64,000 nt of DNA from an uncultured Clostridia bacterium (lineage in GTDB: Bacteria > Bacillota > Clostridia > TANB77 > CAG-465). Where the stretch lies: the NCBI GenBank assembly GCA_947626975.1, contig CANQUF010000001.1, forward strand, positions 22,980 to 86,979, given 5' to 3'. Below the pieces are notes generated by a model. That model ran no database searches and had not been told where the DNA came from. It saw nothing but the letters and a program-made list of their open reading frames with translations. A program made the translations under genes and the position numbers. Shown piece by piece: positions 3,131 to 24,395 of this stretch; the stretch's first letter is position 1; each line of letters begins with the position of its first letter.

Positions 3131-5649
3131 TACTCTTGTACAATTTTATTTATATTCAATATATGTTTTTGTAATTTTTGTAAATCAATCGTTGTTGGTT
3201 CACCACCATCTTTTTTTATATCAGATGATAGTTTTTGTATATTTGATAAAGCTTTTATTTTTAATATAGCTTTCTGCATTATTTGTAAATCAATTGTATT
3301 TATTAACCCTTCTCCATTTATATCACCATAAATAACAACTGAATAACTTTGAATCACATCTTTACTCTCTTTATCAGTAAGTTCAATAGTTGTTCCTGTT
3401 CCAACTAAATCATTATCTAAAATAATCTTGTTATTAATATCTTTTATTACAACTTCATATTTTTCTTTATTATATGTTAGTTTATTTAACAATTCAGAAA
3501 TTTTAGTATTTGGCTCTATTTTACTTATAATATTTTCTTTATCATTAACATTTATTTCTTTGTCAAATGTTAAGAAATCAGCTTCAGATATATCAATAAC
3601 TTTTACTTTAGCAGTTACACTTTTTTCACCATCTTTTGTCTTAAATACAACATCTGTACTACCAGAATTTACACCCTTTATTTTATTATTTTCAATTTTT
3701 ACAATATTTTCATTTTTACTTGTTACACTATACTCTTTATTTGTAGCATCATCTGGTGATATAGTAGGTACTATTGTCAAATACTTTCCTTTAATCATAG
3801 TATAATTTTCTTTAGGTATTGTTATATTTTCAACTTTTGATATAACTGTAACATTACAAGTTGAAGTAAGTCCAGTATCAATAGCTTTAACTGTTATTGT
3901 TGCATTACCTGATTTATTTGCAGTAATCTTTCCATTTTCTACTGATACAATACTTGAATCACTACTAGACCATTCTACATTTTTATTTGTGGCATCCTCT
4001 GGCTCAATTTTATACGTTAATTCTTTATTTTCGCCTTTATTTAAAGTAAGTTCAGTATCATCTAAAGTTATTTTTGTAACTTTTTTTACTACATTAACTT
4101 TACATGTTGCAGTCATTTCATTATCTAGAGATTTTACAGTAATTGTAGCTTCACCTTTTGATTTTGCTGTAAGTTTTCCATTTTCAACACTTACAATATC
4201 ACCATTACTACTAGACCATTCTACATCTTTGTTTGTTGCATTATTTGGTAATATTGTACAAGTAAGATCATATGTATCACCTAAATTCATTTCTAAATTT
4301 GTAGTATTTAAAGATATTCCTGTTACTTTTACATTTGTGTCAACTTCTTTTGTATAGTCTCTAAATACATATCCTTCTATACCGTTATCAAGTCTTACTT
4401 TATCCCATTGTGTATTTAAACTTTTAGCAATTCTTGTCATTTGGTCACCTTCATCAAGTTTTGCTACTATAGAGTATGTTGTTCCTGGACCTGATCTAAT
4501 ATACAATTTTGATGGAGCTACATCATAAGCGGCTATTCTTGTATTATCAGATACATACTCCTCTGAATTATTACCTGGATATGGTGAAAGAGAATCAGGC
4601 ATATTATTAAATACAGGAATATGAAACTCAAATACATTATTTAACATACCCATTTTTTCATATGCTGTATATGTACTATATGATTCATTTGTTGGTGCAA
4701 GAATATTTGTCATATATTGATACGCATAAAGTGCTATTGCATTTCCATATGGATTGTTTACGTCAAATTTTTGAAAGTATGTTGTATCTTGTCCCCACTT
4801 TATCCATTGATTTTTTAAGATATCTGTTCCACCTTTAATAGCACTATCAGGATCAGTCCAATTTTTATTTTTTGCATATTTAAGACCATTAGTAATAGAA
4901 TCTGGTGGAGTTGCACCAATATTAAAATAGTTGTATGGAACTACTCCATCAATAACAGTTGAACCGTTTATTGAACGATTAGAAGTAATATTTCCACCAG
5001 TTTCTTGTTTTATTCTTGATGCAATATATACACCACTAACGTTATATTGTTTTGCAGCATCTAGAATAATACTAGAATAAGTCTTATTCATATTAATCAT
5101 TGATCCTTGTTTTTGATATTCTGATCTATTATACATTGATGTACCATATAATACTTTTTCAATAGAATCTATAGTATCCATAGATTTACTATAGCTTAAA
5201 GTTTGAAATTGAAATACTTCTTTTTCATTTATATGGTTTCTTGGATCTAACATATATTTTACAGCTGGTATTGAAGCAATAACCCAACCACCATCATCAA
5301 TCTGATAATCTTGTCCATCTTTTTTCCATGCAGGATCATAACTTGATGGGACAGCACTAATTCCAGTATTTACTTCATAGCTTTCATGACTTACTGCCTC
5401 ATTCCAATCAAGACCTGTATATACTGCTTTAAATACCCAATTTGGATGAGCTTGCTTTAAGGCATTTATGTATGGTACGTAACTTGCTGGAAAATCATCT
5501 CTCATTTGTGATATAGGAAGTCCAGTCGTAATTTTTGCTTGTACTTGATTTATATTTGTAAATAATGGCATTATACTACATGTGATAATAGAAATTATTA
5601 CAAATAATATTGATATTTTCTTTATTTTTCCTTTTTTCTCATACATCAC
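3130..5649 (-). CDS. secreted multidomain glycan/peptidoglycan hydrolase (GH73-like catalytic region, SH3b, 3-4 Big_2 Ig-like domains, C-terminal dockerin-like module)
   Basis: Signal peptide. The N-terminal ~420 aa are paralogous to the N-terminus of the 1254-aa protein, with a QETGG...YNYFNIGA...GQDTTYFQKFDV pattern resembling glucosaminidase (GH73) motifs. The SH3b-like segment is SKLYIRSGPGTTYSIVAKL...GYVF. Big_2-like repeats follow (VTGISLN..., KITLDDTELTL..., ITIPKENYTMI...). The last ~65 aa look like a dockerin. Confidence 0.55.
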   Translation of the reverse strand: MMYEKKGKIKKISILFVIISIITCSIMPLFTNINQVQAKITTGLPISQMRDDFPASYVPYINALKQAHPNWVFKAVYTGLDWNEAVSHESYEVNTGISAVPSSYDPAWKKDGQDYQIDDGGWVIASIPAVKYMLDPRNHINEKEVFQFQTLSYSKSMDTIDSIEKVLYGTSMYNRSEYQKQGSMINMNKTYSSIILDAAKQYNVSGVYIASRIKQETGGNITSNRSINGSTVIDGVVPYNYFNIGATPPDSITNGLKYAKNKNWTDPDSAIKGGTDILKNQWIKWGQDTTYFQKFDVNNPYGNAIALYAYQYMTNILAPTNESYSTYTAYEKMGMLNNVFEFHIPVFNNMPDSLSPYPGNNSEEYVSDNTRIAAYDVAPSKLYIRSGPGTTYSIVAKLDEGDQMTRIAKSLNTQWDKVRLDNGIEGYVFRDYTKEVDTNVKVTGISLNTTNLEMNLGDTYDLTCTILPNNATNKDVEWSSSNGDIVSVENGKLTAKSKGEATITVKSLDNEMTATCKVNVVKKVTKITLDDTELTLNKGENKELTYKIEPEDATNKNVEWSSSDSSIVSVENGKITANKSGNATITVKAIDTGLTSTCNVTVISKVENITIPKENYTMIKGKYLTIVPTISPDDATNKEYSVTSKNENIVKIENNKIKGVNSGSTDVVFKTKDGEKSVTAKVKVIDISEADFLTFDKEINVNDKENIISKIEPNTKISELLNKLTYNKEKYEVVIKDINNKIILDNDLVGTGTTIELTDKESKDVIQSYSVVIYGDINGEGLINTIDLQIMQKAILKIKALSNIQKLSSDIKKDGGEPTTIDLQKLQKHILNINKIVQE
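3133..3340 (-). other. dockerin-like C-terminal module (two Ca-loop + helix segments)
   Basis: The first segment, GDINGEGLINTIDLQIMQKAIL, fits the type-I dockerin pattern (D-x-N-x-[DE]-G-x-I-N-x-x-D then LxxLxKxIL). The second, DIKKDGGEPTTIDLQKLQKHIL, has a conserved helix but a degenerate loop. Confidence 0.45.
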
Positions 5650-6413
5650 TTATTATCTCCTTTATTTAAAATTTGTATATAAGTTTTAACCTCTATAAAA
5701 TTATATCATAAAAGAAAAAAATGCAAAAGTATTTTGTAGAAATTTGTATACAGAATATATTATGTAAAAATGATATAGAGAAAAATTTTCAAGATAATTC
5801 TTGAATACTTTTTCCTTGTTAATTTCAATATGAAAATAGTTCTTCTACAATTTATTTAATATGTTAGTATCTTCGATATATTTTTTCCTTTGCCTTTTGT
5901 TGCTTTTAATAATGCATATTTATCTGTGCTATATGTTTTAACACATTATTTATGCTATAACTTCTGGAAGTAGTTGCATCAGTATGTATAAGGTACTATT
6001 TAGTATTTTCTTTTCTATATTTTCAATTAATAGTACAGATTTGTTTTTAATTCTATAATGAAATTTTCTATATTTCCATTAGATATATTTAGCTTGTTTT
6101 TTGATATCGATTTTATTAAATATGATAGTCTGTCAATTGCAACTAACCCTTCTATATTTAGAAAAGAGAATAAAGCTTTTATATCAGATCCATATTGTAC
6201 ATCTGTCTTAAATTCTTTTGGTATATTATATTTTCCATTTTCATCTTGATAAAATCTATATTCTTTAGCACTACATCTATTTTTATATCCAATACATATT
6301 TAGATATATATTTATCTGATACTTACCTACATTAATTACTTCATGAGTAACTTCTTATTATTTATTTGGTTTAATATCAGATGATGGAGGTAAGAGACGA
6401 ATTATCACTATTA

Positions 6414-6665
6414 TTACCTAATTGTTTTTTTAAGTCTATCTACTTCATTATATAATTTATTATTCTTGTCTTTTAAATCTTTTATTTTCTTTTTTAAGGC
6501 ATGTACTTCTTCTTTATGTGTTTTCTTTATTTGTTTAATTTCTTTTAAATATTTTTGAGAAGTTTGTCCTTTTACAATTTTTATTTCTTGTGATAAATTA
6601 TCACATTTTTTCATAACTTCTTCTAATTGTTTATACATATCATTCATCTGACCAATTGAAGACAT
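6414..6665 (-). CDS. small coiled-coil protein (83 aa), unknown function
   Basis: Heptad-rich Lys/Glu sequence with a plausible RBS (AAGGACGGTG) 7 nt upstream. It stands alone in a 1.4-kb AT-rich spacer. Confidence 0.3.
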   Translation of the reverse strand: MSSIGQMNDMYKQLEEVMKKCDNLSQEIKIVKGQTSQKYLKEIKQIKKTHKEEVHALKKKIKDLKDKNNKLYNEVDRLKKTIR

Positions 6666-7091
6666 AGTTTATCACCGTCCTTTAAATATATTATACAATA
6701 TATTTAGAGTAATACAAATTAAATTTATGTTACAAAATTGAGATAACAAACGAAAAAATATGAAAATGAGATAGAGTTATCCACATTTCCATATTTATAT
6801 TAAAAAAATTACTATTTTAACTTTTATTATATTAATATTTTCTTTGTATAATTATCCACAAATACATAATTTTGTTACTTAAATTTTATTTTTCTAGTCT
6901 AAATAGTAACAGATAACCGGTTTAATATATCAAATCTTATTGCATTGATACTTTTCTTGTTCTAATCCTTTAGTGACTCATTTAGAATAGTCGGGCTATA
7001 AAGGAATAAATTTTTTAGTATTATATTTTTTTCTGCACTATGTTATAATTTATTAATTTAACTATACATTATCGCGCTTTTTTGTATTATG

Positions 7092-8108
7092 TCAGTCACT
7101 ATTTAAAATATTCTTTTGATAATTCCAACTATCTCTACAAATATCCTCCAAAGTTTTTTCTGTTTTAAATCCTAATTCTTCTCGTGCTTTTGTTGGATCT
7201 GCATAATAGCAAGCTAAATCTCCAGGTCTTCTTTCTACAATTTTATATGGTATTTTTATATTATTTACTTTCTCAAAAGTTTTCACAATATCAAGTACAC
7301 TATATCCTGTTCCTGTTCCAAGATTATATATATATAATCCATTATCAGATGTATCTAATTTATTTAAAGCAAGCAAATGTCCTTTTGCTAAATCTACAAC
7401 ATGTATATAATCTCTAACTCCCGTTCCATCAGGTGTGTCATAATCATCGCCAAATACTGATAATTCACTTAAACTACCACTTGCAACTTTTTGAATATAT
7501 GGCATCAAGTTGTTTGGAATTCCTTGAGGTTCTTCACCTATAATTCCAGAACTATGTGCTCCAACAGGATTAAAATATCTTAAACTTACTATATTCCAAG
7601 TATTATCAGATTTATACAAATCATCAAGAATTATTTCTATCATTGACTTTGTAGTACCATAAGGACTTGTACCTCTTTTTATCTCCATACTTTCAACATA
7701 TTTTGTTGTACCTGGATTTCCGTATATAGTTGCTGATGAACTAAAAATGAATTTTTTAACATTATATTTTTTCATAACATCTAGTAATGTAAGTGCACCT
7801 GTAACATTATTTATATAATATTCTAAAGGTTTTTGTACAGACTCTCCTACTGCTTTATACCCTGCAAAATTTATTACTGCATCAATATCATTATTTTTAA
7901 AAATTTCTTCTAAAGTTTCTCTATTAGTATAATCTCCTTCATAAAATTTAAAGTCCTTATTTGTAATCTTTTTTATATTATCTAATGTTTTGGGTTTACT
8001 ATTAGAAAAGTTGTCAATAATAATTATTTCCCTTCCTGCATTTAATAGTTCTACACATGTATGAGAGCCAATATAACCTGCTCCTCCAGTTACTAGTATT
8101 TTCTTCAT
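7092..8108 (-). CDS. galE: UDP-glucose 4-epimerase
   Basis: Rossmann motif VTGGAGYIGSH, catalytic YGTTK (YxxxK), and a length (338 aa) and overall pattern typical of GalE. Confidence 0.85.
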   Translation of the reverse strand: MKKILVTGGAGYIGSHTCVELLNAGREIIIIDNFSNSKPKTLDNIKKITNKDFKFYEGDYTNRETLEEIFKNNDIDAVINFAGYKAVGESVQKPLEYYINNVTGALTLLDVMKKYNVKKFIFSSSATIYGNPGTTKYVESMEIKRGTSPYGTTKSMIEIILDDLYKSDNTWNIVSLRYFNPVGAHSSGIIGEEPQGIPNNLMPYIQKVASGSLSELSVFGDDYDTPDGTGVRDYIHVVDLAKGHLLALNKLDTSDNGLYIYNLGTGTGYSVLDIVKTFEKVNNIKIPYKIVERRPGDLACYYADPTKAREELGFKTEKTLEDICRDSWNYQKNILNSD

Positions 8109-8138
8109 ATAATTTCCTCCAAAAATTAAAACAAAAAA

Positions 8139-9059
8139 CTAATGTTTTAGTATTTTCTTTATTAATATTTCGAATATAAGTTCAAATTTCCTTATATATT
8201 TTAGAATTTTAAAAATTAATATTTGAAATAAATTAGCCTGGTTATACTTTTTTTGAAAGTATATCTTACTGTCAAATAATATATCTTGTTTTTTAAATAC
8301 ACTCATTATTTTACCTATAGTTTTGCTTTCATAATGAGTAAATGATAATTTATTTAAAGAGTATATATCGTAATTAAATTTCTTTGCATTTACACTTATA
8401 ATATCCTCTTCATAGAATAAAAAAGTATTATCATCAAAATATCCTATATTTTTAAACAGTTCGTGATTTGCAATAAAAAAAGATCCAGCTATTGCATCGA
8501 CTTTTAATATTTCTTTTTTAAAATCATCTTTAGAATATTCTCCTTTTTTAAAAAATGGATATAGTAAAAACTGTGTTATACGAGTAGAATTTGCAATATC
8601 AGTTATAACATTTCTATGCTTCCAAGCACTTCTTCTTGCAGGGCCATTTATGTAATTCATTCTTGGAGATGCTATTACACAATTTTCATTTTTATCTAAA
8701 AATTGAATTGTATTTATTATATCTTGCTCTTTTATATATACATCAGGATTTGATATTATAACGTATTTAAACGTATCAACTCCATAATGTTTATCAATAT
8801 ATTTTAAGCCATAATTATTACCATATGCATATCCACCATTCTTATTACTAACTATAACCTCAACTTTACTAGAAGTAAGCTTTTGTAGACTTTTAACTTC
8901 ATCTTTATTAGTGGAGTTATTGTCTACTATTATAACCTTATCTAATATTTTATAGTCTTTTATATTTTTTATAATTTCCTCTGTATTTTCTTTATCGTTA
9001 TAATTTAATATTATCATTGCTATAGACATAACAGTTACCTTTCTTAACTTTATTCCCAT
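8139..9059 (-). CDS. glycosyltransferase family 2
   Basis: GT-A N-terminus (IILNYNDKENT...IIVDNNSTN) and an acidic DxD region. It overlaps the upstream deacetylase gene by 10 nt. Confidence 0.7.
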   Translation of the reverse strand: MGIKLRKVTVMSIAMIILNYNDKENTEEIIKNIKDYKILDKVIIVDNNSTNKDEVKSLQKLTSSKVEVIVSNKNGGYAYGNNYGLKYIDKHYGVDTFKYVIISNPDVYIKEQDIINTIQFLDKNENCVIASPRMNYINGPARRSAWKHRNVITDIANSTRITQFLLYPFFKKGEYSKDDFKKEILKVDAIAGSFFIANHELFKNIGYFDDNTFLFYEEDIISVNAKKFNYDIYSLNKLSFTHYESKTIGKIMSVFKKQDILFDSKIYFQKKYNQANLFQILIFKILKYIRKFELIFEILIKKILKH

Positions 9060-9949
9060 TCTACATTAACTTTAGATTTTGTTACATAATCTTTAAATGT
9101 ATCCATTGACATAGATCTATTTACGTATATTCTAGGTATAGCATACATATTCTTATGTTTTGATGTATAATATGTACCACCAGTCATAGCGAGTCCATTT
9201 TTATATCCTATTTCTTTAGATAAATCTAATACTACATTATTAAATGATCCATAAGGATAACATATTGTTGTAGAATCTATACCTAAGTTCTCTTTTAAAT
9301 AAATTTTAGATTTATTTAATTCATTATATATACTATCTTTATTTAAATCTGCAAGTCTTGGATGCGTTACTGTATGAGATTGAATGTCGACAAGTCCACT
9401 ATCTTTCATTTCTTTTAACTCATCTAATTTAATATATCCAGGAGTACCAATTAAAGATGTAATAACATAATACGAAGCTTTCATATTATATTCTTTTAAT
9501 AACGGAAAAGCATTAATATAAAAGTCTTCCAAACCATCATCAAAAGTAAGCCAAACTGGTTTTGTAAAATTTTGTAAGTTTTCAATATCATCTTTATATA
9601 TTGTTTCATATCCATTATCTTTTAAATATTGAAGTTGCTTTTTTAACGTTTCTGGACGTACCATATTTTCTGGAAATTCATAATCACCTGTATCATCTCT
9701 TACAAAATGATACATAAATATTGGTACTGCTGCATCTAAACTTTTTACTTTCTTTAATTCGGCATTTGCTATATTATCTTGTAAAATAAAATTTACTGTA
9801 TTTTCTTTTTTATTTTCATTAGCTAAAGTTTTATTATTTAAACTTATTTTACTAAAATATATAGTTATTGCAACTATTATAGCTAATATTATACAAATGA
9901 ATATAACAAAAAACATTTTTTTATTTATTTTAGTAATTATATATACCAC
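9050..9949 (-). CDS. polysaccharide deacetylase (NodB/CE4), N-terminal signal-anchor
   Basis: WLTFDDGLEDFY, HTVTHPRL and PIFMYHF motifs, with a single N-terminal TM. It is paralogous to 832..1722. Confidence 0.75.
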   Translation of the reverse strand: MVYIITKINKKMFFVIFICIILAIIVAITIYFSKISLNNKTLANENKKENTVNFILQDNIANAELKKVKSLDAAVPIFMYHFVRDDTGDYEFPENMVRPETLKKQLQYLKDNGYETIYKDDIENLQNFTKPVWLTFDDGLEDFYINAFPLLKEYNMKASYYVITSLIGTPGYIKLDELKEMKDSGLVDIQSHTVTHPRLADLNKDSIYNELNKSKIYLKENLGIDSTTICYPYGSFNNVVLDLSKEIGYKNGLAMTGGTYYTSKHKNMYAIPRIYVNRSMSMDTFKDYVTKSKVNVEWE

Positions 9950-9975
9950 CTCTTATTAATTTAATTATTAAAGTT

Positions 9976-10365
9976 CTAATTACTACCTTTCAAAGTTTTT
10001 TTTGGTTTGATATTAATTACAATTATCCCAATTATAACAAGAGATACACCTATTATTCCATTTATAGTAATTTTTTCTTTAAAAAGTAAATAACCTGACA
10101 ATAAAGTTAAAACTTGTGTTATTCCAGAACTAATTGGCATTATATAACTTAAATCAAATTTTACTATAAGATTAGTAAATAAAAGAAAACTTAATATATA
10201 ACTAATAAATCCAAGTAAACTTATTAAACTCATAGAAAAAGAAAATGATCCTTGTCCAAATAAAAAAGTTCCTGTATTTCCTCCTATTTTCATTAATACT
10301 AATCCTAAAACTGTAAGTATTAAATATGATATAACAAATATAGTTTTTTTCATTTTTCCCCCCAT
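9976..10365 (-). CDS. small 4-TM EamA/SMR-like transporter subunit (ArnE/ArnF-like)
   Basis: About 125 aa, four predicted TM helices, and a tandem paralog immediately upstream. The pair architecture resembles heterodimeric undecaprenyl-phosphate-sugar flippases. Confidence 0.5.
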   Translation of the reverse strand: MGGKMKKTIFVISYLILTVLGLVLMKIGGNTGTFLFGQGSFSFSMSLISLLGFISYILSFLLFTNLIVKFDLSYIMPISSGITQVLTLLSGYLLFKEKITINGIIGVSLVIIGIIVINIKPKKTLKGSN

Positions 10366-10366
10366 A

Positions 10367-10732
10367 TTATACTATTTTTAAATTCATTATAACAATACCA
10401 ACTATTATAATACTTGCTCCTATTATTGAAGTTTTACTAATTTTTTCCTTAAATAACAAATTAGCAGATATCAAAGTTAATATTTGTACTATACCAGTAA
10501 CTATTGGCATTATATAACTCAAATCAAACATTACAACAAGTCTTGTAAATAACAAAAAACTACATAAATAACTTAAGAAGCCTAATGCACTAATAGGACT
10601 CATTGATAAACTTATATCTTTTTTATTTAGTTTGATTTTACCGGGATTTCCACCTTTTTTCATTAAAATAAGTCCTAAAAGTGTTAATATAAGGTAAACT
10701 ATTATCATTAAATATTTCATTTTTTCCCCCAA
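10367..10732 (-). CDS. small 4-TM EamA/SMR-like transporter subunit (ArnE/ArnF-like), paralog
   Basis: Clear paralog of the 9976..10365 product, sharing FDLSYIMPI and LLFKEKI. The two genes are separated by 1 nt. Confidence 0.5.
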   Translation of the reverse strand: MGEKMKYLMIIVYLILTLLGLILMKKGGNPGKIKLNKKDISLSMSPISALGFLSYLCSFLLFTRLVVMFDLSYIMPIVTGIVQILTLISANLLFKEKISKTSIIGASIIIVGIVIMNLKIV

Positions 10733-10735
10733 AAT

Positions 10736-11518
10736 CTATTTCTTTTTATTTAATTTATACACTAAATATATGATTATAATTATTAGAATTCCAACAATTC
10801 CAATAAACACTCTAATATCAATAGTTTTTCTACTTTTATCAGTATTCATATTTGAATCCTCTTGTGATGTTTCAACTACATCACTAATTGCTTTATCTAT
10901 TGTATCTTTTTTTAAATTTAGTGTATATTCTTTTGCGGTACTTCCATCTTCAGAATTTACTTTTATTTTTATAACATTATTACCATCTTTTAAATTTTCA
11001 TTTCCAGATATTTCTACAGTAGCTCCTTCTTGTCTTGGAGCAGCGAAAATTGAAACATTATTTATCTTATTTGGTACACTACCTAAATCATAGTTTAAGG
11101 TTTCAGGTACAAATGGTGGCACTAACTCTAAGTTTTCAACAATTAAAGTTTGCAAATATGAATCTGATTTATCTTTATCTGATGCTTTAGTTACAGTTAT
11201 AGTATAAACATTTTCTTTACCATTTTTATCAGTTACTTCAATTAATACTGTATTATCACCAGATTTTAAATTATCATTTCCTGATACTTTCACTGTAGAA
11301 TCAGTAGAACTTGCTACTGCATTTACATCAATAGAATTTATAGTATCTTTTACAAACAAAGAATAACTTGTTTGCGATGGAGTGAAATTTGGGGATAAAC
11401 CTTCTTGGTTTACCTCCAATTTCATTAATTCAGTATTTGTAGCTGCCATACATACACAAATGTTAGTAAGAAAAAAAACACTAAAAAAGAACACAATTTT
11501 CTTAAAATATTTTGACAT
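10736..11518 (-). CDS. surface protein with two cadherin-like beta-sandwich domains, C-terminal TM anchor
   Basis: Signal peptide, two cadherin-like beta-sandwich repeats (LMKLEVNQEGLSPNF...YTITVTK and LQTLIVENLELVPPF...YTLNLKK), and a C-terminal TM ending in KKK. It is a shorter paralog of the 1784..3130 product. Confidence 0.6.
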   Translation of the reverse strand: MSKYFKKIVFFFSVFFLTNICVCMAATNTELMKLEVNQEGLSPNFTPSQTSYSLFVKDTINSIDVNAVASSTDSTVKVSGNDNLKSGDNTVLIEVTDKNGKENVYTITVTKASDKDKSDSYLQTLIVENLELVPPFVPETLNYDLGSVPNKINNVSIFAAPRQEGATVEISGNENLKDGNNVIKIKVNSEDGSTAKEYTLNLKKDTIDKAISDVVETSQEDSNMNTDKSRKTIDIRVFIGIVGILIIIIIYLVYKLNKKK

Positions 11519-11531
11519 ATTTTCCTCCTAT

Positions 11532-14500
11532 CTATTTTACTAATATATATATCATAGATTTAATATTATTATTTTCATCTTTTATAAATAATGTTGCATC
11601 TCCTGAACCTTTTGGAGTTATTATTCCATTCTCATCAACTGTAAACACTGAAGTATTATTTGTTTCATAATGTACATTAATATATTTACTATCAGCTAAA
11701 TTTATGAAGTCTGATACTTTATATGTATTTTCTAAACTTAAAGTTCTATGATCAGTATATTCTACATTCAATTTTAGTTGAGCATATACAAGATTTGAAC
11801 TATCATTAGAAACTACAGTTATAATTGTTTCACCTAAGCTTTTTGCGACTATATTTCCATCTGAATTTACATCAGCAATATTGCTATCTGCTACTTTAAA
11901 AGTTACATCCTTATATTTTGCATTATCAGGCAAAATTTTATAATTTATTTTACATGAATCACCAGATTTTAAGGTAAGTTCTTTTTTATCTAATACAATT
12001 TCTGTTACTTTTACATAATCTATAACTTTTATATAAACCATTGCTAAATTATTGCCATTAATATCTTGCACAAATACAGTGGCATCTCCTTTTCCAGTTG
12101 GTGTTAATTTCCCATCTTGTGATATCTTAGCTACAGATTCATTATTTATTTTTAATATCGCATCAGAATATTTCTTATTATTAACATCTAATACATTCCA
12201 AATTGACTTAGGAGTTACCATATCTGTTTCAATAGAAGCAGTATATTGCAAGTTAACATTACATGTTACATCATTAAAAGTTTTATCCTCTGAAGAAATA
12301 ATTATTTTAGAATTTCCTAAAAATTTAGCATATATATTTCCATCATCATCAATTGTAAATAGATCTTCATTTGCACTTTTATATTTTAATTTTTTATACT
12401 TAGCATTATCAGGAACTACAGTAGCATCTAATTTGTCACTTTCACCTACTTTTACATTAAATTCATCTTTATTTAATTCTATTTTTTCTACTTTAATATA
12501 TTCCTTTACATTTACATATATCATACTCTTAGTATTACCTGATGAATCAATTATAAATAGCGTACAATCTCCTAATGAACTATTGACTGTTACTAATTTA
12601 TTTTTATTATCAATAGATAAAAGAGTATTATTATTTGTACTAAGAGTACAATTTCCATATTTTTCTGTATCAAAGAAATATGAAAAAGATAATTTATCTT
12701 CAAAATATACTGTTTTACTGTCAGTATATCCAACTTTAATATAACATAATTCAATAATATTTCCATTTTTATCTTCTACAAATACACTTGCATCTCCTAA
12801 AAATTTTCCTGTTACATTTCCTGAACTATCTACATTAATTACATCATTATTGTTAGTATAATATTTTATGCCAATTTTATCAATATTTATTTTCTCTCCT
12901 ACTTTTATTGATTTTGAATCCGTATAGTGTACTCCCACATAGTATATTCCAATTAAATTACCATTTTTATCTTCTACAAATACACTTGCATCTCCTAAAA
13001 ATTTTCCTGTTACATTTCCTGAATTATCTACATTAATTACACTATTATTATTTGTATAATATCTTGTACCAATTTTACCAATATTTATTGTCTCTCCTAC
13101 CTTTATTGATTTTGAATTTGTATAGTGTACTCCCACATAGTATAGCCCAATTAAATTACCATTTCCATCTTCTACAAATACACTTGCATCTCCTAAAAAT
13201 TTTCCTGTTATATTTCCTGAACTATCTATATTAATTACACTATTATTGTTAGTATAATATTTTATTCCAGTTTTACCAATATTTATTGTCTCTCCTACTT
13301 TTATTGATTTTGAATCTGTATAGTGTACTCCCACATAGTATAGCCCAATTAAATTACCATTTCCATCTTCTACAAATACACTTGCATCTCCTAAAAATTT
13401 CCCTGTTATATTTCCTAAATTATCTAAATTAATTACACTATTATTGTTGGTATAATATTTTTTACCATTACCATCAATATGTATCTTTTCTCCTATTTTT
13501 AATGAAAATTGATCTGTGTATTTTACTGCAACATAAAACATAGCTAATCTTCTTCCATCTAATGAATCTATAAATACAGTAGCGTCTCCTAAGAATTTTC
13601 CCTTTACATTTCCTTTTGAATCCACATATAAAACTTCATTATTATTAGTATATATCTTACAATTTCCATATTTTTCTAAATCTATATTAATAGTTTCGCC
13701 AACTTTAACAGAAAAAGAATCTGTATATCCAACTGCAACATAGCAAGTATCTTGTATTGATAAATCATCATCACTCATTGCAAATACAGTTGCATCTCCT
13801 ATATTTCTTCCTGTTACAATACCATTTTTATCTACTGTTACAACATCAGAGTTGTTTGTAGTATATATAACATCTTTAAATCTTGCATTATTTGGAGATA
13901 TTGTCGCATTAAGTTGTTCACTTTGTCCAGATTTTATTTTTATTTTTTCTTTATTTAATGTCAGTCCTGTTACTCTTGTATATCCAGTATATTCCTTAAC
14001 ATAGCTAGAGAAAACATAACCTTCAGTTCCATCACTTAGTTTTACCTTATCCCATTGAATATTTATACCTTTTTTTATTCTAGTCATTATTGTTCTATTC
14101 TCTTGGCCTTCAAAATCTTCTATAATTTTTGTAACTACTGCAGAATTAGAATTTGGTTCAGCTCTGATTATAAAGGTATCTTTTACTCCAAAATCAGATG
14201 TATCATCAAGATATACTTTTGTATGATCATCTTCAAATTTTGCTTCTTCACCAACTTGAACCGGTGTAGGAGTCATATTATTAAATACAGGTATATGAAA
14301 TACAAATGATGAATCTAACATGTTACATGCCTTATATGAAGAATATATTCGACTTGATTCACTAGACGGAGCTAATATATTAGTCATATATTGCATCCAA
14401 TACAAAGATTGACCTCCTGTAATATCATTTACATCCCACTTTTCAAAATATACTGTATCTTGTCCCCATTTTACATAATCGTTATATATCTTTTTAGCAG

Positions 14501-15296
14501 CTCCTTCAATTGATGATGATGGATGTGTCCAACCTTCATCACGAGCTCGTAAAAGTGCATTAACAACTATAGATCTACCACCTGCTGTATTAGCTCCAAT
14601 ATTGAAAAAGTTATATAAGCCTTCATATCCAGGATATGACCCATTTATGCAATTATTATTTATTATGTCACCACTATTTTCTTGCCTTATTCTTGATGCT
14701 AAATGTACAGGGCTAACATTATATTTTTTACCATTTTCAGTTATTATATCAGAATATGACTTTTTTCCCGTTTCTCCATCAAGAAATAGCCAATTACCAT
14801 TATTTTTATATCTAACTCCGTAATATGAGTCACCCATAGGAGTTCCGTATAAAACTTTTTTTACCACATCTGATGTATCTACATTATTATTACTTGTTAC
14901 TGCAAATTGGAATATTTTTTCCTCATTTAAAAAATTTCTTGGATCTAAGCAATAACCAACTGCAGATTCTGAAGCATTAACCCATCCAGGTTCTATATTT
15001 TCTTCACTCTTTTTCCATTCTGATGAATAACTAGATGGTACCAAACTTCTTCTGTCAACAGTTTCATTATCTACTGTATTTTGCCAATCTAAATCAGTAT
15101 ATACAGCAACAAACTTCCAGTTGGGATGAATACTATGCAAATTTTGCAAATAAGTTTGATAGCTTTCAGGAAAAGCATTAATTCCTTCTACATATTGAGA
15201 TTTTGCATAAATAACATTTTTACCTAAAAATATTATAGCGATGAATATAAATAGTTTTATTATATTAATTTTACATTTTTTTATTTTATTTATCAT
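11532..15296 (-). CDS. secreted multidomain glycan/peptidoglycan hydrolase (GH73-like region, SH3b, many Big_2-like repeats)
   Basis: The N-terminal ~430 aa are paralogous to the 839-aa protein. The SH3b-like segment is GYVFSSY. After that come about eight ~65-aa Big_2-like repeats, the central four nearly identical, and further Big_2 domains to the C-terminus. Confidence 0.55.
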   Translation of the reverse strand: MINKIKKCKINIIKLFIFIAIIFLGKNVIYAKSQYVEGINAFPESYQTYLQNLHSIHPNWKFVAVYTDLDWQNTVDNETVDRRSLVPSSYSSEWKKSEENIEPGWVNASESAVGYCLDPRNFLNEEKIFQFAVTSNNNVDTSDVVKKVLYGTPMGDSYYGVRYKNNGNWLFLDGETGKKSYSDIITENGKKYNVSPVHLASRIRQENSGDIINNNCINGSYPGYEGLYNFFNIGANTAGGRSIVVNALLRARDEGWTHPSSSIEGAAKKIYNDYVKWGQDTVYFEKWDVNDITGGQSLYWMQYMTNILAPSSESSRIYSSYKACNMLDSSFVFHIPVFNNMTPTPVQVGEEAKFEDDHTKVYLDDTSDFGVKDTFIIRAEPNSNSAVVTKIIEDFEGQENRTIMTRIKKGINIQWDKVKLSDGTEGYVFSSYVKEYTGYTRVTGLTLNKEKIKIKSGQSEQLNATISPNNARFKDVIYTTNNSDVVTVDKNGIVTGRNIGDATVFAMSDDDLSIQDTCYVAVGYTDSFSVKVGETINIDLEKYGNCKIYTNNNEVLYVDSKGNVKGKFLGDATVFIDSLDGRRLAMFYVAVKYTDQFSLKIGEKIHIDGNGKKYYTNNNSVINLDNLGNITGKFLGDASVFVEDGNGNLIGLYYVGVHYTDSKSIKVGETINIGKTGIKYYTNNNSVINIDSSGNITGKFLGDASVFVEDGNGNLIGLYYVGVHYTNSKSIKVGETINIGKIGTRYYTNNNSVINVDNSGNVTGKFLGDASVFVEDKNGNLIGIYYVGVHYTDSKSIKVGEKINIDKIGIKYYTNNNDVINVDSSGNVTGKFLGDASVFVEDKNGNIIELCYIKVGYTDSKTVYFEDKLSFSYFFDTEKYGNCTLSTNNNTLLSIDNKNKLVTVNSSLGDCTLFIIDSSGNTKSMIYVNVKEYIKVEKIELNKDEFNVKVGESDKLDATVVPDNAKYKKLKYKSANEDLFTIDDDGNIYAKFLGNSKIIISSEDKTFNDVTCNVNLQYTASIETDMVTPKSIWNVLDVNNKKYSDAILKINNESVAKISQDGKLTPTGKGDATVFVQDINGNNLAMVYIKVIDYVKVTEIVLDKKELTLKSGDSCKINYKILPDNAKYKDVTFKVADSNIADVNSDGNIVAKSLGETIITVVSNDSSNLVYAQLKLNVEYTDHRTLSLENTYKVSDFINLADSKYINVHYETNNTSVFTVDENGIITPKGSGDATLFIKDENNNIKSMIYILVK
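12600..13750 (-). repeat. tandem ~195-bp intragenic repeats (encode ~65-aa Big_2-like units), core copies near-identical
   Basis: The DNA unit '...atcttctacaaatacacttgcatctcctaaaaattttcctgtta[ct]atttcctga...' recurs at about 12.78, 12.97, 13.17 and 13.36 kb with only a few mismatches. More diverged copies flank the core. Confidence 0.7.
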
Positions 15297-15408
15297 ATAT
15301 TACACTCCTATTTACATATAATTTACTAACATAAATTTTATATACCTAAAATAATTAATATAGTAAATAAAAAATACATAACTAATGGTAATATTTTTTA
15401 TATCCATA

Positions 15409-17577
15409 CTAATACGAAACCTTAAAAATCAATAAACCATATTCATCATAAAGTTTTTCAAATTTTATATTATCATTATTATATTTTTCTAAATTTTTGC
15501 TAGATAAAACATATTTAACATTAATATCGTCTAATTTGTCAGGATTAATATTTATCTTTATAGAATCAGGATATAATAATTCTAAATTTGTATCAATATC
15601 ATCAATATTGACACTTACATGTGCATATCTATTATAGATTTTTCTTATTTCTTCTTTTTGACTATCCTCACCTAATAAAGTTTTATATAATTCATAATTA
15701 GGATAATAATTTGTAGAATTTATTACTCTTGCACCATTTGCAACAACGTAATTTGGAACTGTAAAATTTAAATTATCAACTAGCCATAAGGCGTCTTTAT
15801 TTTCATTTACAATTTTTTGTATTTCTAAAGATACAGGTTTGTTATATATTACATTTATTCCTTTTATGATAGGATTTACTATAGCACCAGATAATATTGC
15901 AACAGACGATAGTATTACCATAAAATATTTCTTATATTTTGGTTTATTTAAATTAAACATAAGATAAAACAAAATAAATACTATTGTGCCTGATATAAAA
16001 CCTGAAACTGGTCCTAAATAATTAGATGGTCCATACTTAACAGCAAAAATTAAACATATAGTTGCAAAAACTCCAGAGAGTATAAAGCTAACTTTTTCTT
16101 TTAATAATTTGGTATCATCTTTAAAATTATTAATTAAATATATAATTAACAATATTTGTATATATCCTAAAGCTATTGCTGCCCTATGTGAAGGTATCAT
16201 ATATAATAATGTTATCTTTGCAAATATTTTATTAGTAGGGATAAAACACCATATAGAAAGTAAGATACTAACTAGTAATAACGGTATTAAAAAACTTAAT
16301 ATCTTTTTAAAATCTTTGCTTTTTCTTTTTCTATATAAATAGAGTAAAGCAATAATAATCGGCATAGGATATAAAGATAGCATATTTGAATTTTCACAAG
16401 GGTTTATCATGTCCTTAAGCGGTACAAAAATCGAATATACATATGAAAACATGTTATCTTGAGAATTTCCACCAATTTCAAATCTCTCTCCTGGATAGTC
16501 AGCATTAAGCGTTGCTGTAATAGCCTCATTTGAGATGATAAAAAATCTAGCAACGATTAAAACAACTAAAATGATTGTTATAATTATAGATAATACATCA
16601 ATTTTATTAATATGAAAATCTTTTCTATTTTTTAAAATAATCCATATTAGAATTGCAAGATAAACATATGCAAATGAAATCATCCATGCTGGATATAGTA
16701 TAAATATATAACAAATAGCACAAAATCCCACACCTAATATGTATAGACTTCTAAAATACCATTTTTTTTCAAGCATAAATTTATCTATTAAAACTAGCGC
16801 CAATTGTCCAAATATTAGTATATCTACTATAAAATTAGAATACCACCATTGCACAGCTGGAGAAAAAGTTATTACAAGCATTCCGAATAATGATACAAGC
16901 TTGTTTTTCTTAGTAAGTAACATACAAAATTCAAATGATATTAACATTAATGCTACTAATCTACCATACCACCAAAAAGATAATCCTACTTCATTACCAA
17001 ATAGAAGATACCCGATATTAAAAGGTTTCCCTATAATTAGAATATCTTTAACAGGAGCATTTATTACTGTAAACATGTCTGTTTTTGTTCCTCTAATATT
17101 CATATTAAAATATGGATAATTTTCATTTTCTTGTAAATTTTGAGAAAATATTAAAGGAGAATTTACGGCCCATTCATCTGAACGTATTGTCCTTGCTTTT
17201 CCTAAAATAGGAGTATACGTACTATCATTAGCCTCACTTTGTACAAAAAAATTATATGATGTAATTGATGAGCCTGAATATTTCATTATCATAGCAAAAA
17301 AAAGGAATAATAAAGCTAAAATAAATCTTTTTTTATATATCCACTGATACATATCATTAAGCCTAAAAATTAAATGTAATCCGGTAAATAATATAACTCC
17401 TGCAATTATAATAATTCTGTCTATACTAAAAGCTCCACTTTTTTTATAAATCACAAAAAACTCCATAAGAAAAGATAGTAATACGGCAACTAAAAACAAT
17501 ATAATTATTTTGATAAGTTTAAAATTATCTTTATTAAAAAAATTCAAAACTTTATTTCTTATCTTCTTTTTTGTCAT
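15409..17577 (-). CDS. polytopic membrane protein, candidate GT-C glycosyltransferase / oligosaccharyltransferase (YfhO- or WsaB-like)
   Basis: At least 12 predicted TM helices over ~520 aa, followed by a ~200-aa soluble C-terminal domain. The genomic context is GT2 plus a small membrane protein. No motif-level assignment was possible. Confidence 0.4.
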   Translation of the reverse strand: MTKKKIRNKVLNFFNKDNFKLIKIIILFLVAVLLSFLMEFFVIYKKSGAFSIDRIIIIAGVILFTGLHLIFRLNDMYQWIYKKRFILALLFLFFAMIMKYSGSSITSYNFFVQSEANDSTYTPILGKARTIRSDEWAVNSPLIFSQNLQENENYPYFNMNIRGTKTDMFTVINAPVKDILIIGKPFNIGYLLFGNEVGLSFWWYGRLVALMLISFEFCMLLTKKNKLVSLFGMLVITFSPAVQWWYSNFIVDILIFGQLALVLIDKFMLEKKWYFRSLYILGVGFCAICYIFILYPAWMISFAYVYLAILIWIILKNRKDFHINKIDVLSIIITIILVVLIVARFFIISNEAITATLNADYPGERFEIGGNSQDNMFSYVYSIFVPLKDMINPCENSNMLSLYPMPIIIALLYLYRKRKSKDFKKILSFLIPLLLVSILLSIWCFIPTNKIFAKITLLYMIPSHRAAIALGYIQILLIIYLINNFKDDTKLLKEKVSFILSGVFATICLIFAVKYGPSNYLGPVSGFISGTIVFILFYLMFNLNKPKYKKYFMVILSSVAILSGAIVNPIIKGINVIYNKPVSLEIQKIVNENKDALWLVDNLNFTVPNYVVANGARVINSTNYYPNYELYKTLLGEDSQKEEIRKIYNRYAHVSVNIDDIDTNLELLYPDSIKININPDKLDDINVKYVLSSKNLEKYNNDNIKFEKLYDEYGLLIFKVSY

Positions 17578-17929
17578 TTATAGTCTCCTCCAAAGCTAAA
17601 ATTTTCGCCTTCAAAATAGAAATTTCTTGTATTAATAATATAGTTCTATTTGCTTGCTTAGTTAATATCATAGTAAGTGAAAAAATCAAACCAAATGCAA
17701 TAAAAATAGTTAAACAAAATATCATATTTGAGGTTTGCTCAAATCCTAATAAATTAGATATTAATTCTATAAAATTAGGTATTAATATAGCCACCATTAA
17801 CAATATTCCTGTTATAATCCAAAAAATAGCAATAGAAGATTGCATTTTCCTTTTTTTTACTGAACTTATAATTAGATATAAATATATCACTGTTATAATT
17901 ATTAAAGCTACTCTAAGTGTAATAGACAT
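17552..17929 (-). CDS. small membrane protein, DUF2304-like (GT2-associated)
   Basis: Three TM helices plus a C-terminal amphipathic/coiled segment (LIQEISILKAKILALEE). The pattern (R-KGK-x-LxxSxxxIWI...LLGxE-P-N-LF) matches the DUF2304 family, which usually neighbours a Dpm1-like GT2. Confidence 0.45.
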   Translation of the reverse strand: MSITLRVALIIITVIYLYLIISSVKKRKMQSSIAIFWIITGILLMVAILIPNFIELISNLLGFEQTSNMIFCLTIFIAFGLIFSLTMILTKQANRTILLIQEISILKAKILALEETINDKKEDKK

Positions 17930-17930
17930 A

Positions 17931-18671
17931 TTATTCCTCCTTATATTTTCTTCTTTTCTTAAATCTCATACTATCAATAATAATAGAAATAGAAACCTTA
18001 ATCATGTAATCTATACTTTTTAAAAAATTAATAGAAGATTTTCCATTTTCTCTTTCGTTCATTGATACAGGAACTTCTTTAATATTATAACCTTCTTTAA
18101 TAACATTAACAAGTGATTCAGGTTCAGGATAATCAGTTGGATAGTCTAAAGTAAATAATTTAATAATTTCTTTATTAACTGCTCTAAATCCAGAGGTAGG
18201 ATCAGTTATCTTTTTACTAGTACATATTTTAATAATTATAGATATAATGTTTTTTCCTAGCCTTCTCATAAAAGTAGATTTAAATTTACTAGATTCATTA
18301 TCTAAATACCTAGAACCAATACATATATCTACATTTTCATTAATTAATGGTTTACAAATATCATTTACATAATTTATATCATGTTGCCCATCACCATCAA
18401 ATTGAATTGCAATGTCATAATTATTTTGATATGCATAATGATATCCTGTTTGAACAGCACCACCAATTCCTAGATTACTTATTAGATTAATTACATTCAT
18501 ACTATACTTTTTACAAATTTCTAACGTATTATCAGTAGAAGCATCATTTATTATTATATAATCTAATTTTACTTTGCTTTCTTTTTTATTAAATTCTTTA
18601 ATTTTTTTATATACACTTAAAATGTTTTTAGATTCATTATAAGCAGGTATAATCAATAATATTTTTTTCAT
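17931..18671 (-). CDS. glycosyltransferase family 2 (Dpm1/GtrB-like polyprenyl-phosphate sugar synthase, soluble form)
   Basis: IPAYNE N-terminus, INDASTDNT and a DGDGQHD (DxD) motif. Stop/start abuts the DUF2304-like gene. Confidence 0.7.
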   Translation of the reverse strand: MKKILLIIPAYNESKNILSVYKKIKEFNKKESKVKLDYIIINDASTDNTLEICKKYSMNVINLISNLGIGGAVQTGYHYAYQNNYDIAIQFDGDGQHDINYVNDICKPLINENVDICIGSRYLDNESSKFKSTFMRRLGKNIISIIIKICTSKKITDPTSGFRAVNKEIIKLFTLDYPTDYPEPESLVNVIKEGYNIKEVPVSMNERENGKSSINFLKSIDYMIKVSISIIIDSMRFKKRRKYKEE

Positions 18672-18702
18672 AATTCTATAAATCCTTTTACATATAATTC
18701 AA

Positions 18703-20931
18703 TTAAGTTATTCTATTTTTTATTTTTTTAGCTAATTTCCATATTCTAGATCTTCTAATATTTTCATATTTATATACAACATGTCCATATAGTGATTTAT
18801 AATTTTTAAATTCTGTTTCTATATAATTCTTCTTGTAATCATTAAACTTATATACATTAATATACTTATTTTTACTTTCTATATTCTCATATAATTTTTG
18901 ATAATATTTCTGCATTTCTTCTATTGTCTTATATTTATATTTTTTAAAATTATTTTTCTTACTATAATACTCTTCTTCATTATTACATATTTTCGCAATT
19001 TTTTCAAGTATTTCTTCATAAGTAGAATTAATATCAATAACCCATCCTAAATCATCGTTTTTAACTCTATCACCAACAGCACCTATATTAAAAGTTAAAA
19101 CAGGTATATGTGCCATATAACTTTCAGTTAAAGTATATGAATATGTCTCAGGCCACGTAGTAAAAATACATACTAAATCTATATTGTTATCTACAAGTAA
19201 TTGAGGTAATTCCCCTCTTCTATATTCTCCATGATTTATGTAATTTTTTTGTTTAGTATTTAAAAATTTATCATTTGATTTACCAAATAAATGTATCTTT
19301 ATATTTGAATTTTTATTTCTAATTATTAGATTTTTTAATACATTGATACCTTTATGTATAGCCATAGCACCGACAAAAGCTATATTAAATTGTTTTCTTT
19401 CATCTTTACTATTATTTTTCTTAAAATTAACATTTTTTACTTCAACACCATGCTCTACAACTTCAAAATTCAAATCATTATATACTTTTTTAAACATATT
19501 CTTAGTATTTTGAGATGGAAGCAAAATTCTATCAAATTTTCTTAAAACTTCTCTACAAATATTTTGCCAATTTTTTAATATATTACTATTGACACCAAAC
19601 CTCATTTTTAAACATCTTAAGCAATCTTTTTCCTTATCATACTCACAAAATTTTTCCTTATATACCATATTAATAGAAGGACATATCATATATAAATCAT
19701 GTAGAGTAATTACTGAATATATGTTTAATTCTTTTGCTATATCTATAGCATCAAAAGTTTGAAATAAAAAATGATGAACATGTAATATATCAATGTTAAA
19801 ACATTCAAATATATTTCGTACAATATCTTTATATGTATTATTTGTATAATTTATTTGCCCATAATAATTTATATCTGTGCTATAACTTGCAATCTTTTTT
19901 TTAAATTTTTTTACATACAGATATAAATCAAATCTAGACAAGTCATATTTATTAGGTACTAACACAAAACTTGCAATATTATTATTTAAATTTGAATTAA
20001 TAATATCTTTTAAATGAAGAGATGTCCCACCTGTCATTTCCATATTTTCTTCCCATTCATTTACTAAATATAATATTTTTTTGTTATTATATAATAAAAT
20101 ATTAAAATTTATATTTTCTTGTATATCACTTATTGGATTTAATCCCAAAAAATTGTCAGTTTTTTGAACATATATAGGATGTTTTTTTCTCAATAATTCC
20201 ATATGTTCCTTAATTAATGCAGCTCTAGTAGAAGTTAAGTTTTCTTTTTTAAAACTTTGAGTACCTTTATGAAAAATAAATGTATTATCACACAAAACAT
20301 TAGTATATCCATGATCTAATGCTCTATAACAAAAATCATTTTCTTCTCCATATCCTTTACCAAACGTTTCATCATCAAATAGTCCTATTTCATCAATAAC
20401 GTCTCTCTTTATAAACATACAAAATCCATTACCAGTAGTTAATTGTGGATATCTAGAAATCGAAATTTTTTCTACCATATTAGCATATTCATCTAATGTC
20501 ATGTTGTCCGGTAATTCATTATCCACCCCAAAATTTGGTACTGAAGCAATAGTCCCATTATTAGTTAAAGGTGTAACTGTTGCTATATATCTATTTGAAT
20601 ATGCACATTTACATATTTTTTCAATCCAATTTTTCGTTACCTCAGTATCACTATTTAATAATATAACATCGTTTTTAGAATATTGCATTCCTCTATTTAC
20701 TGTTTTAACAAATCCCATATTTTCTTTATTTTCAAGTACTATAATATTTAAATTTTCATAATCAGACTTGTACTTAGTAAGCATTGGAAGTATATTTTTA
20801 TCAGGGCTTTTATCATTTATTAAAAGTAAATTATTTTTCTTTAAATCTGTGTTTTTAATTATACTTTTTATACAATCAGATGTATATTCATATGCATTAT
20901 ATATTGGTACAACTATATCTATATTTTTCAT
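18703..20931 (-). CDS. bifunctional glycosyltransferase (N-terminal GT2 + C-terminal GT4/GT-B domain)
   Basis: The N-terminus is IDIVVPIYNAYEYT...LINDKSPD (GT-A). The C-terminal half has a GT-B signature (FGxS..., E-x7-E-like TESYMAHIPVLTFNIGAVGDRV). Confidence 0.7.
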   Translation of the reverse strand: MKNIDIVVPIYNAYEYTSDCIKSIIKNTDLKKNNLLLINDKSPDKNILPMLTKYKSDYENLNIIVLENKENMGFVKTVNRGMQYSKNDVILLNSDTEVTKNWIEKICKCAYSNRYIATVTPLTNNGTIASVPNFGVDNELPDNMTLDEYANMVEKISISRYPQLTTGNGFCMFIKRDVIDEIGLFDDETFGKGYGEENDFCYRALDHGYTNVLCDNTFIFHKGTQSFKKENLTSTRAALIKEHMELLRKKHPIYVQKTDNFLGLNPISDIQENINFNILLYNNKKILYLVNEWEENMEMTGGTSLHLKDIINSNLNNNIASFVLVPNKYDLSRFDLYLYVKKFKKKIASYSTDINYYGQINYTNNTYKDIVRNIFECFNIDILHVHHFLFQTFDAIDIAKELNIYSVITLHDLYMICPSINMVYKEKFCEYDKEKDCLRCLKMRFGVNSNILKNWQNICREVLRKFDRILLPSQNTKNMFKKVYNDLNFEVVEHGVEVKNVNFKKNNSKDERKQFNIAFVGAMAIHKGINVLKNLIIRNKNSNIKIHLFGKSNDKFLNTKQKNYINHGEYRRGELPQLLVDNNIDLVCIFTTWPETYSYTLTESYMAHIPVLTFNIGAVGDRVKNDDLGWVIDINSTYEEILEKIAKICNNEEEYYSKKNNFKKYKYKTIEEMQKYYQKLYENIESKNKYINVYKFNDYKKNYIETEFKNYKSLYGHVVYKYENIRRSRIWKLAKKIKNRIT

Positions 20932-20945
20932 ATACTCTCCTTTTC

Positions 20946-24365: not shown

Positions 24366-24395
24366 TATACTACCTCCTTGTATAAAATTTAATAA

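Follow-up and report, generated by a model that had tools for sequence, protein, structure and literature searches.

A 64,000-nucleotide (nt) stretch of DNA from an uncultured Clostridia bacterium (assembly GCA_947626975.1, contig CANQUF010000001.1, positions 22,980 to 86,979; called the window below, with positions counted from its first letter) carries a gene for a putative secreted enzyme with a tandem array of short immunoglobulin (Ig)-like units in its middle. The gene lies on the minus strand at 11532-15296. From the list of open reading frames (ORFs), Pfam and searches of PDB, its product of 1254 amino acids (aa) is read as a signal peptide, a GH73-like domain, an SH3-like domain and about 12 Ig-like domains. 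We consider it probable that the array, built of 66-aa units of the Big_2 kind, has been enlarged or homogenised by recombination between neighbouring units, that this has happened in parallel in sister lineages, and that the array serves as a semi-rigid spacer.

A tandem array inside this ORF had already been noticed in an initial annotation of the window, and both the ORF list and Tandem Repeats Finder (TRF) confirm it. TRF finds a single strong array in the gene, at 12752-13467, with a period of 198 nt, 3.6 copies, 92% matches, 0% indels and a score of 1201; in the whole window, the other large tandem repeats come down to a collagen-like GXY repeat alone. The period is thus 198 nt or 66 aa, and not the 195 bp or about 65 aa given initially. 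When the protein is cut at the recurring motif YT[DN], six short units (u1 to u6) are obtained, all on the minus strand. Four central units of exactly 66 aa each, u2 (13323-13520), u3 (13125-13322), u4 (12927-13124, from the in-frame comparison of units) and u5 (12729-12926), make up aa 593-856. They are flanked by u1 (13521-13727, aa 524-592, 69 aa) and u6 (12504-12728, aa 857-931, 75 aa), the positions of which are conserved across orthologs. The flanking units share 52-58% (u1) and 30-32% (u6) of their residues with the central units, in agreement with the diverged flanking copies described before, and they are old copies bracketing the array. The consensus peptide quoted in the initial annotation fits u2-u4.

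The central units are similar, but the statement that they are nearly identical with only a few mismatches does not hold. In the coding register, pairs of u2-u5 differ at 15-44 positions per 198 nt, which corresponds to 77.8-92.4% DNA identity with a mean near 86%. The most similar pair is u3/u4 (92.4%; u3/u2, 87.9%), and two of the six pairs fall below the 85% proposed as the limit for substantially diverged copies. At the protein level, identity is 70-86% over all pairs and 80.3, 86.4 and 78.8% between neighbours. The mismatches are spread unevenly and are concentrated at the two outer ends of the array, within the initial ~60 nt of u2 and the final ~35 nt of u5. Between these edges, 30-nt windows compared at an offset of 198 nt are 80-100% identical, and with the register shifted by 60 nt, three interior units with 91.4-94.9% identity are obtained. 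Taken together, TRF, sliding identity and the shifted register delimit a homogenised core of about 3.5 units (12767-13461, minus strand) with neighbours 91-95% identical. Exact tracts between neighbouring units span 44-84 nt, the 84-nt run being the longest at offset 198.

Synonymous divergence (pS) between adjacent central units is 0.159, 0.117 and 0.231. Values of 0.51-0.65 were obtained for u1/u2 (0.65), u5/u6, the three canonical Big_2 domains and the two C-terminal short units of the same protein, and the N-terminal 485 codons differ from those of the three closest orthologs by 0.54-0.64. The similarity of the central units therefore exceeds what mere protein constraint or chance would produce, and their shared DNA ancestry must be much younger than the divergence from the closest known relative. 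With the orthologs as reference, the proposal of recent expansion or concerted evolution is thus supported. On the scale of strains it is not: a 2176-nt contig from a second sample of the same organism (ERZ27249348; L018) matches the window except for 1 substitution and one 25-nt gap, whereas the central units are at least 7.6% apart and are thus not recent by that measure. A scan of the window with Rfam did not match any RNA family, and nothing therefore suggests an RNA constraint on the repeat.

Among 945 homologs, nearly all are 750-850 aa long and consist of a GH73-like domain, SH3, 2-3 Big_2 domains and a dockerin. Only three, all from gut metagenome assemblies, share the long architecture: P0001 (1103 aa), P0002 (1379 aa) and P0003 (1317 aa, on a contig belonging to a metagenome-assembled genome (MAG) recorded as 'uncultured Clostridium sp.'). 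They align over the whole length with 52-64% identity to the window protein, which itself is also present in the protein collection as an exact copy (P0122). The gene order around the four orthologs is conserved: family 2 glycosyltransferase (GT2), DUF2304, DUF7657/DUF7654, this gene, Cadherin-like membrane protein, deacetylase, GT2, epimerase.

By motif spacing, P0001 has 2 central units, the window protein 4, P0003 5 and P0002 6. Copy number thus differs between species, and the change in copy number predicted by the initial annotation is borne out at this level. In an all-against-all comparison, central units cluster by protein: they are 70-86% identical in the window protein, 93% in P0001, 79-100% among the first five units of P0002 (edge unit 68-78%) and 68-85% among the first four of P0003 (edge unit 52-58%), compared with 45-59% between the central units of the window protein and those of the other three. 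The flanks behave differently and pair by position across proteins, the first units at 55-58% (u1 with that of P0001, 55%) and the last units at 60-65% (u6 with that of P0001, 60%). The DNA shows the same gradient. In P0002, two units are identical over 198 nt and an exact run of 321 nt is found at offset 198; in P0003, the first four units are 73-87% identical and the fifth, at the edge, 63-67%. Grouping of units by protein, flanks paired by position and differing counts together indicate a lineage-specific expansion or homogenisation with a different outcome in each lineage. A 36-nt exact pattern common to the four central units was not found in the JGI metagenomes.

Two further observations were made among the homologs. 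The dockerin-bearing P0019 (906 aa) contains a different tandem array, made of three ~78-aa units unrelated to those described here, at about aa 560-800 (KEYKIETDKEEYTVEVD...), and independent amplification of modules therefore recurs in the enzyme family. P0001 (L002, about 11280-11312) and a fragment from the same species, P0130 (L019), both end in ...LVTLGKRRCYIIC and stop ~25 residues short of the end that the final Ig-like unit has in the other orthologs; since the two agree, this is a truncation or frameshift shared within that species and no one-off assembly error.

The in-frame period of 198 nt without indels, the gradient from interior to edge, the low synonymous divergence and the differing copy numbers point to recombination or gene conversion as the source of the array. 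Exchange between neighbouring 198-nt units, by unequal homologous recombination or by gene conversion, would both enlarge the array and keep its units similar. The interior would be homogenised, and the outer edges, each with a single neighbour to recombine with, would drift apart. The same process, acting independently in sister lineages, could have led to the 2, 4, 5 and 6 central units seen today. At 44-84 nt, the exact tracts remain of sufficient length to support homologous recombination. The rate of recombination drops steeply with sequence divergence, and the array in the window should therefore be much more stable than that of P0002.

What kind of domain the unit represents had to be judged by fold rather than by sequence, because a profile of the unit gave only weak and partial matches to PDB sequences (E of 0.004 or worse), through a generic '..SSN..V..V...G.vta...G.a.v' motif. 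In Pfam, single central units either do not match Big_2 (PF02368) or reach 18.5 bits over profile positions 36-72, the C-terminal half, below the gathering score of 22.8 bits; the four-unit segment reaches 39.5 bits, summed over three stretches, and the canonical Big_2 domains flanking the array pass clearly with 34-57 bits. An AlphaFold2 model of u3-u4, for which an alignment of 20 adjacent-unit pairs was used as input, has seven strands per unit, a predicted local distance difference test score (pLDDT) of 97.3 and a predicted template modelling score (pTM) of 0.85. Compared with PDB structures in Foldseek, the model is closest to the tandem Big_2 domains of Leptospira LigA (8gyr, E=4e-7), and further top matches are Big_2-CBM56 (7r3t/7quz), intimin and S-layer Ig-like domains. 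The model thus predicts an Ig-like beta-sandwich resembling solved Big_2 domains; the label 'Big_2-like' is apt for the modelled fold, although single units stay below the Pfam cut-off. In the model, two residues separate the last strand of one unit from the first strand of the next, which together with the pTM suggests a fixed, rod-like and rigid arrangement of the pair.

Among 1.84 billion proteins, the unit profile finds 7329 representatives (E<=1e-3), mostly giant multi-repeat proteins, but full-length matches are limited to the representative of the clade itself and to an ortholog fragment. Within the Big_2-like superfamily, the unit is a shortened form confined to a small clade. The host protein also scores 70.2 bits (cut-off 40) with the NCBIfam equivalog model NF053514, the BLB8/JUQZ-1 family, in the region of u2-u5 (12729-13520). 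This score is the sum of five partial stretches at profile positions 44-106 of 107, none of which covers the model over its full length. An equivalog model that fires on a 1254-aa protein in this way carries a risk of misannotation. The match hints that JUQZ-1/BLB8/PeBL1 is itself a single short Big_2-like Ig domain.

The N-terminal part of the host protein begins with a probable signal peptide (15204-15296, aa 1-31, MINKIKKCKINIIKLFIFIAIIFLGKNVIYA, cut before KS), read by eye from a basic N-region, a hydrophobic core and a small residue at -1. It is followed by a GH73-like N-acetylglucosaminidase domain (14262-14822, about aa 159-345). In a single-sequence phmmer search, residues 180-291 match AtlE (4pi7, E=2.9e-6) and also the glucosaminidase domain of Atl, and a profile of eleven family members matches 6fxo (1e-13), 6fxp (1.9e-13), 6u0o (2.2e-13), 4pi7 (4.9e-12) and 5wqw (2.8e-9). 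E206, the putative catalytic residue, is invariant in the 11 family members and aligns to the Glu of the ...LVETGNG motif of AtlE, which we take to be the catalytic residue of that enzyme. The Pfam model Glucosaminidase (PF01832) is not reported for the protein. By homology the domain is related to characterised GH73 enzymes, and hydrolytic activity is predicted, which agrees with the designation of the gene as a hydrolase.

An SH3-like domain (13995-14168, aa 377-434) stays below threshold in Pfam (SH3_3, 17.9 bits; cut-off 27); the region aligned to it in the paralogous enzyme described below scores above the cut-off (36.4 bits). A canonical Big_2 domain precedes the array (13728-13979, aa 440-523; 56.9 bits, matching the Big_2 of 7quz). 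Behind the array, the C-terminal extension (11535-12503) consists of two pairs of a Big_2 domain and a short HL_N-beta-like unit, about 161 aa per pair (motif spacing 161/162 aa; Pfam on single segments). It occupies the place of the dockerin in the shorter relatives of ~750 aa, and the C-terminus of the protein is an Ig-like unit, ending in ...MIYILVK. The 25-nt gap in the contig from the second sample lies at about 15035 (near codon 87) and results in a frameshift after aa 86 and a 92-aa product (P0123); it could be an assembly error at 2.2x coverage or a real inactivating deletion.

The gene is part of one of two paralogous two-gene modules in the window (1784-5649 and 10736-15296, both on the minus strand), each consisting of a GH73-like/SH3/Big_2 enzyme followed by a Cadherin-like, membrane-anchored protein. 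In the second module, the conserved downstream neighbour (10736-11518) has a signal peptide, two Cadherin-like beta-sandwich domains and a C-terminal membrane anchor by Pfam; it is also present at the three ortholog loci (L001-L003) and is a candidate tethering partner. In the first, the enzyme (3130-5649, 839 aa) contains SH3_3, Big_2 and Dockerin_1 but no 66-aa array, and its partner (1784-3130, 448 aa) has an extra N-terminal domain in addition to two Cadherin-like domains and a membrane anchor. The enzymes of the two modules are 41% identical (over aa 15-518) and the partners 46% (over 178 aa). The extra N-terminal domain does not match Cohesin in Pfam, even at E<=10.

A cohesin-dockerin pairing is documented at two loci only, both from Clostridium MAGs (L005, 6001-9563; L006, 240-3565), where the enzyme ends in Dockerin_1 and the gene directly behind it encodes a Cohesin domain, two Cadherin-like domains and a C-terminal membrane anchor. 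The Cohesin scores of 31.2 and 34.1 bits (cut-off 24.1) emerge only from a scan restricted to the N-terminal 126 aa, and a phmmer search of the cohesin-like region of L005 against PDB sequences found nothing. Judged from its domains, the pair resembles a cohesin-dockerin tether dedicated to a cell-wall hydrolase and independent of any cellulosome. The L005 enzyme is split by a frameshift (6001-7200 / 7160-8275).

Both the array gene and its neighbour lie within a same-strand block (7092-26195, minus strand) that contains an epimerase/dehydratase, several GT2 genes and GT2-GT4/GT1 fusion glycosyltransferases (742, 1139 and 599 aa), as well as DUF2304, a DUF7657/DUF7654 membrane protein, two small EamA/TMEM234-like membrane proteins and a polysaccharide deacetylase. 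From this gene content, the block is a locus for synthesis or decoration of a cell-envelope glycopolymer, and the 'peptidoglycan hydrolase' may act on this glycopolymer or together with it.

For the role of the array, a spacer is our best guess. How far the catalytic/SH3 part at the N-terminus stands from the Ig-like part at the C-terminus would be set by the array. That C-terminal position is taken in shorter relatives by a dockerin that can pair with a cohesin-bearing, membrane-anchored neighbour, and we read the array as a spacer because the Ig-like domains of L005/L006 sit between the catalytic head and the anchor. The main rival would be multivalent binding of a wall polymer. According to this explanation, which we hold to be a serious but clearly less probable one, the units are ligand-binding modules for glycopolymer or peptidoglycan, and their number tunes avidity or processivity instead of reach. 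The protein has no detectable anchor and would hence be a stalk without a base. Big_2 domains stand beside carbohydrate-binding modules in the matching structures (7quz/7r3t, Big_2-CBM56; 6n1a, a carbohydrate-binding protein), the gene lies within a glycopolymer synthesis locus, and the unit is homologous to a free-standing secreted family with reported bioactivity (NF053514, BLB8/JUQZ-1; PMC11747845). Nonsynonymous relative to synonymous divergence (pN/pS) between units is about 0.5-0.7, from small counts, with changes in predicted loops. On the other hand, no ligand-binding residues or carbohydrate-binding signature were identified in the units, the two-residue junction and the pTM suggest a rigid rod, and the equivalent domains of the relatives are placed between catalytic domain and dockerin.

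Several observations weigh against a spacer that is lengthened by recombination. Neither the window protein nor its three orthologs have a dockerin, and their neighbour (10736-11518 in the window) lacks the extra N-terminal domain and the cohesin. Searches with Pfam and NCBIfam did not detect LPXTG, SLH, a cell-wall-binding repeat or a dockerin in the host protein; the 'stalk of a surface enzyme' proposed initially was an analogy, and the protein offers no recognisable anchor for it. The pN/pS values are compatible with relaxed constraint on a spacer and also with diversification of binding surfaces. With units only 78-92% identical, ongoing recombination should be much rarer than in classic proteins of variable length. 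P0003 and P0121, two complete alleles of one species, are both 1317 aa long and do not represent length variants. Finally, short-read metagenome assemblies are the source of all copy numbers, and two of these assemblies are interrupted within the array.

A more specific explanation combines a spacer with tethering. The clade might have exchanged the cohesin-dockerin tether for an expandable rod of short Ig-like units that attaches directly to the Cadherin-like membrane protein encoded next to it or to the glycopolymer of the locus, with 2-6 units as an evolvable ruler for the depth at which GH73 cuts in the envelope. We regard this as unlikely. If true, it would be a case of dockerin-independent tethering with length tuning, for an enzyme and not for an adhesin.

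It is also improbable that the array, or its copy number, is a product of assembly, in which case the true number of units would be higher or lower and the mosaic differences would partly be mis-joined reads. Exact runs of up to 84 nt exceed the k-mers of many assemblers. The contig from the second sample (L018, 2.2x coverage) stops inside u3 at 13207, 5 nt short of the second occurrence of the 84-nt exact repeat, and a scaffold from another sample of the sister species that encodes P0001 (L019, 98.8-99.3% identical) has a gap of 100 N inside the array. We considered the end of L018 as proof of a repeat-induced break, but rejected this as unprovable, given the coverage of 2.2x and the fact that the first 84-nt copy had already been passed. 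Against an artefact speaks that L018 independently contains u1, u2 and the initial 116 nt of u3, free of substitutions in that part (1 mismatch in 2176 nt overall), that the reading frame is intact across the array, and that the same overall design is found in four orthologs. Since no 150-nt window of the array comes closer than 4 mismatches to any of its shifted copies, a collapse is not forced. The warning against assembly collapse in the initial annotation is thus justified insofar as two other short-read assemblies break in the array, and it is reasonable to apply it above all to P0002, with its 321-nt exact repeat and six-unit count.

That the units are old duplicates kept similar by purifying selection on the protein alone can hardly be correct: the core motifs YYTNN and GDA[ST]VF are indeed present in all units and in the orthologs, but a pS of 0.12-0.23, 3-5 times below the 0.51-0.65 of other domain pairs and of the orthologs, contradicts it, as do the grouping of units by genome and not by position and exact runs of 63-84 nt.

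Among known systems, the closest in design are the Periscope Proteins (SasG/Aap, Rib, Sgo_0707), which were collected in a screen for repeats of >50 residues with at least 80% identity (Whelan et al. 2021, PMC8201768). As in these, an N-terminal functional domain is followed by tandem similar folded domains of >50 residues, copy number differs between related genomes, and the array, like most such arrays, consists of Ig-like beta-sandwiches. Adjacent units of the window protein are 79-86% identical in aa sequence, far above the <50% that is usual in multidomain proteins but borderline for the 80% rule (80, 86 and 79%). The differences are that DNA identity is 78-92%, compared with 82-100% protein identity in Sgo_0707, that neither LPXTG nor another anchor lies opposite the functional head, that the head is an enzyme and not an adhesin, and that the length variation shown is between species. 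In our assessment, the protein would work like a Periscope-type array but should not be filed as a member.

The LigA/LigB arrays of Leptospira (8gyr) are the best structural match to the two-unit model and likewise form tandem Big_2 domains, in Lig as an elongated surface-exposed region. However, Lig domains, about 90 aa long, score above the Big_2 cut-off, the sequences are about 14% identical, and the Lig proteins are lipoprotein adhesins of a spirochaete. The dockerin-bearing GH73-like/SH3/Big_2 proteins of gut Clostridia (~750-850 aa; P0004, P0012, P0065 and the ORF at 3130-5649) share the N-terminal enzyme and SH3-like region (41-57% identity), the first Big_2 domain and a similar Cadherin-like membrane neighbour. 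They have 2-3 Big_2 domains and a C-terminal dockerin, with a cohesin in the neighbour in L005/L006, where the clade studied here has the 66-aa array and a long Ig-like tail. The glucosaminidase domain of staphylococcal AtlE/Atl (4pi7, 6fxo) is homologous, with the aligned Glu conserved, but distant (E about 1e-6 for a single sequence), and the staphylococcal enzymes are targeted by wall-binding repeats of the GW/SH3b type and not by Ig-like arrays. BLB8/JUQZ-1/PeBL1 of Brevibacillus laterosporus (NF053514), described as bacteriocin/elicitor (PMC11747845), are homologous free-standing single domains to which the 66-aa unit aligns at profile positions 44-106. They are single-domain proteins of ~117 aa, and the summed score over five repeats does not imply equivalence.

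Elsewhere in the window, a 301-aa protein is encoded on the plus strand (47908-48813), with a Cys-rich N-terminus, a collagen-like GXY/GAT-GPQ region and a C-terminal globular domain. Its collagen-like repeat is reported by TRF at 48193-48344 (period 63, 2.4 copies, 88%). We assume that it resembles the BclA-type exosporium collagen-like glycoproteins of spore formers. The host is a gut Clostridium of very low GC content (25%), and a plus-strand ORF overlapping the array gene (12052-12744) was dismissed as an unsupported antisense artefact of sequence with 25-27% GC.

The array marks a spot of unreliable short-read assembly in this gene family, as both additional assemblies (two of two) fail there, and reported protein lengths and copy numbers of the family thus merit caution. 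Variation in domain number is a familiar route of bacterial surface-protein evolution, and the current understanding of it is unchanged by our results. What the window contributes is an enzyme-headed, anchor-less case among the repeat proteins of variable length, which so far have mainly been adhesins of pathogens, and the standard signature of concerted evolution, with a homogenised interior, drifting edges and grouping by genome, in an uncultured gut commensal.

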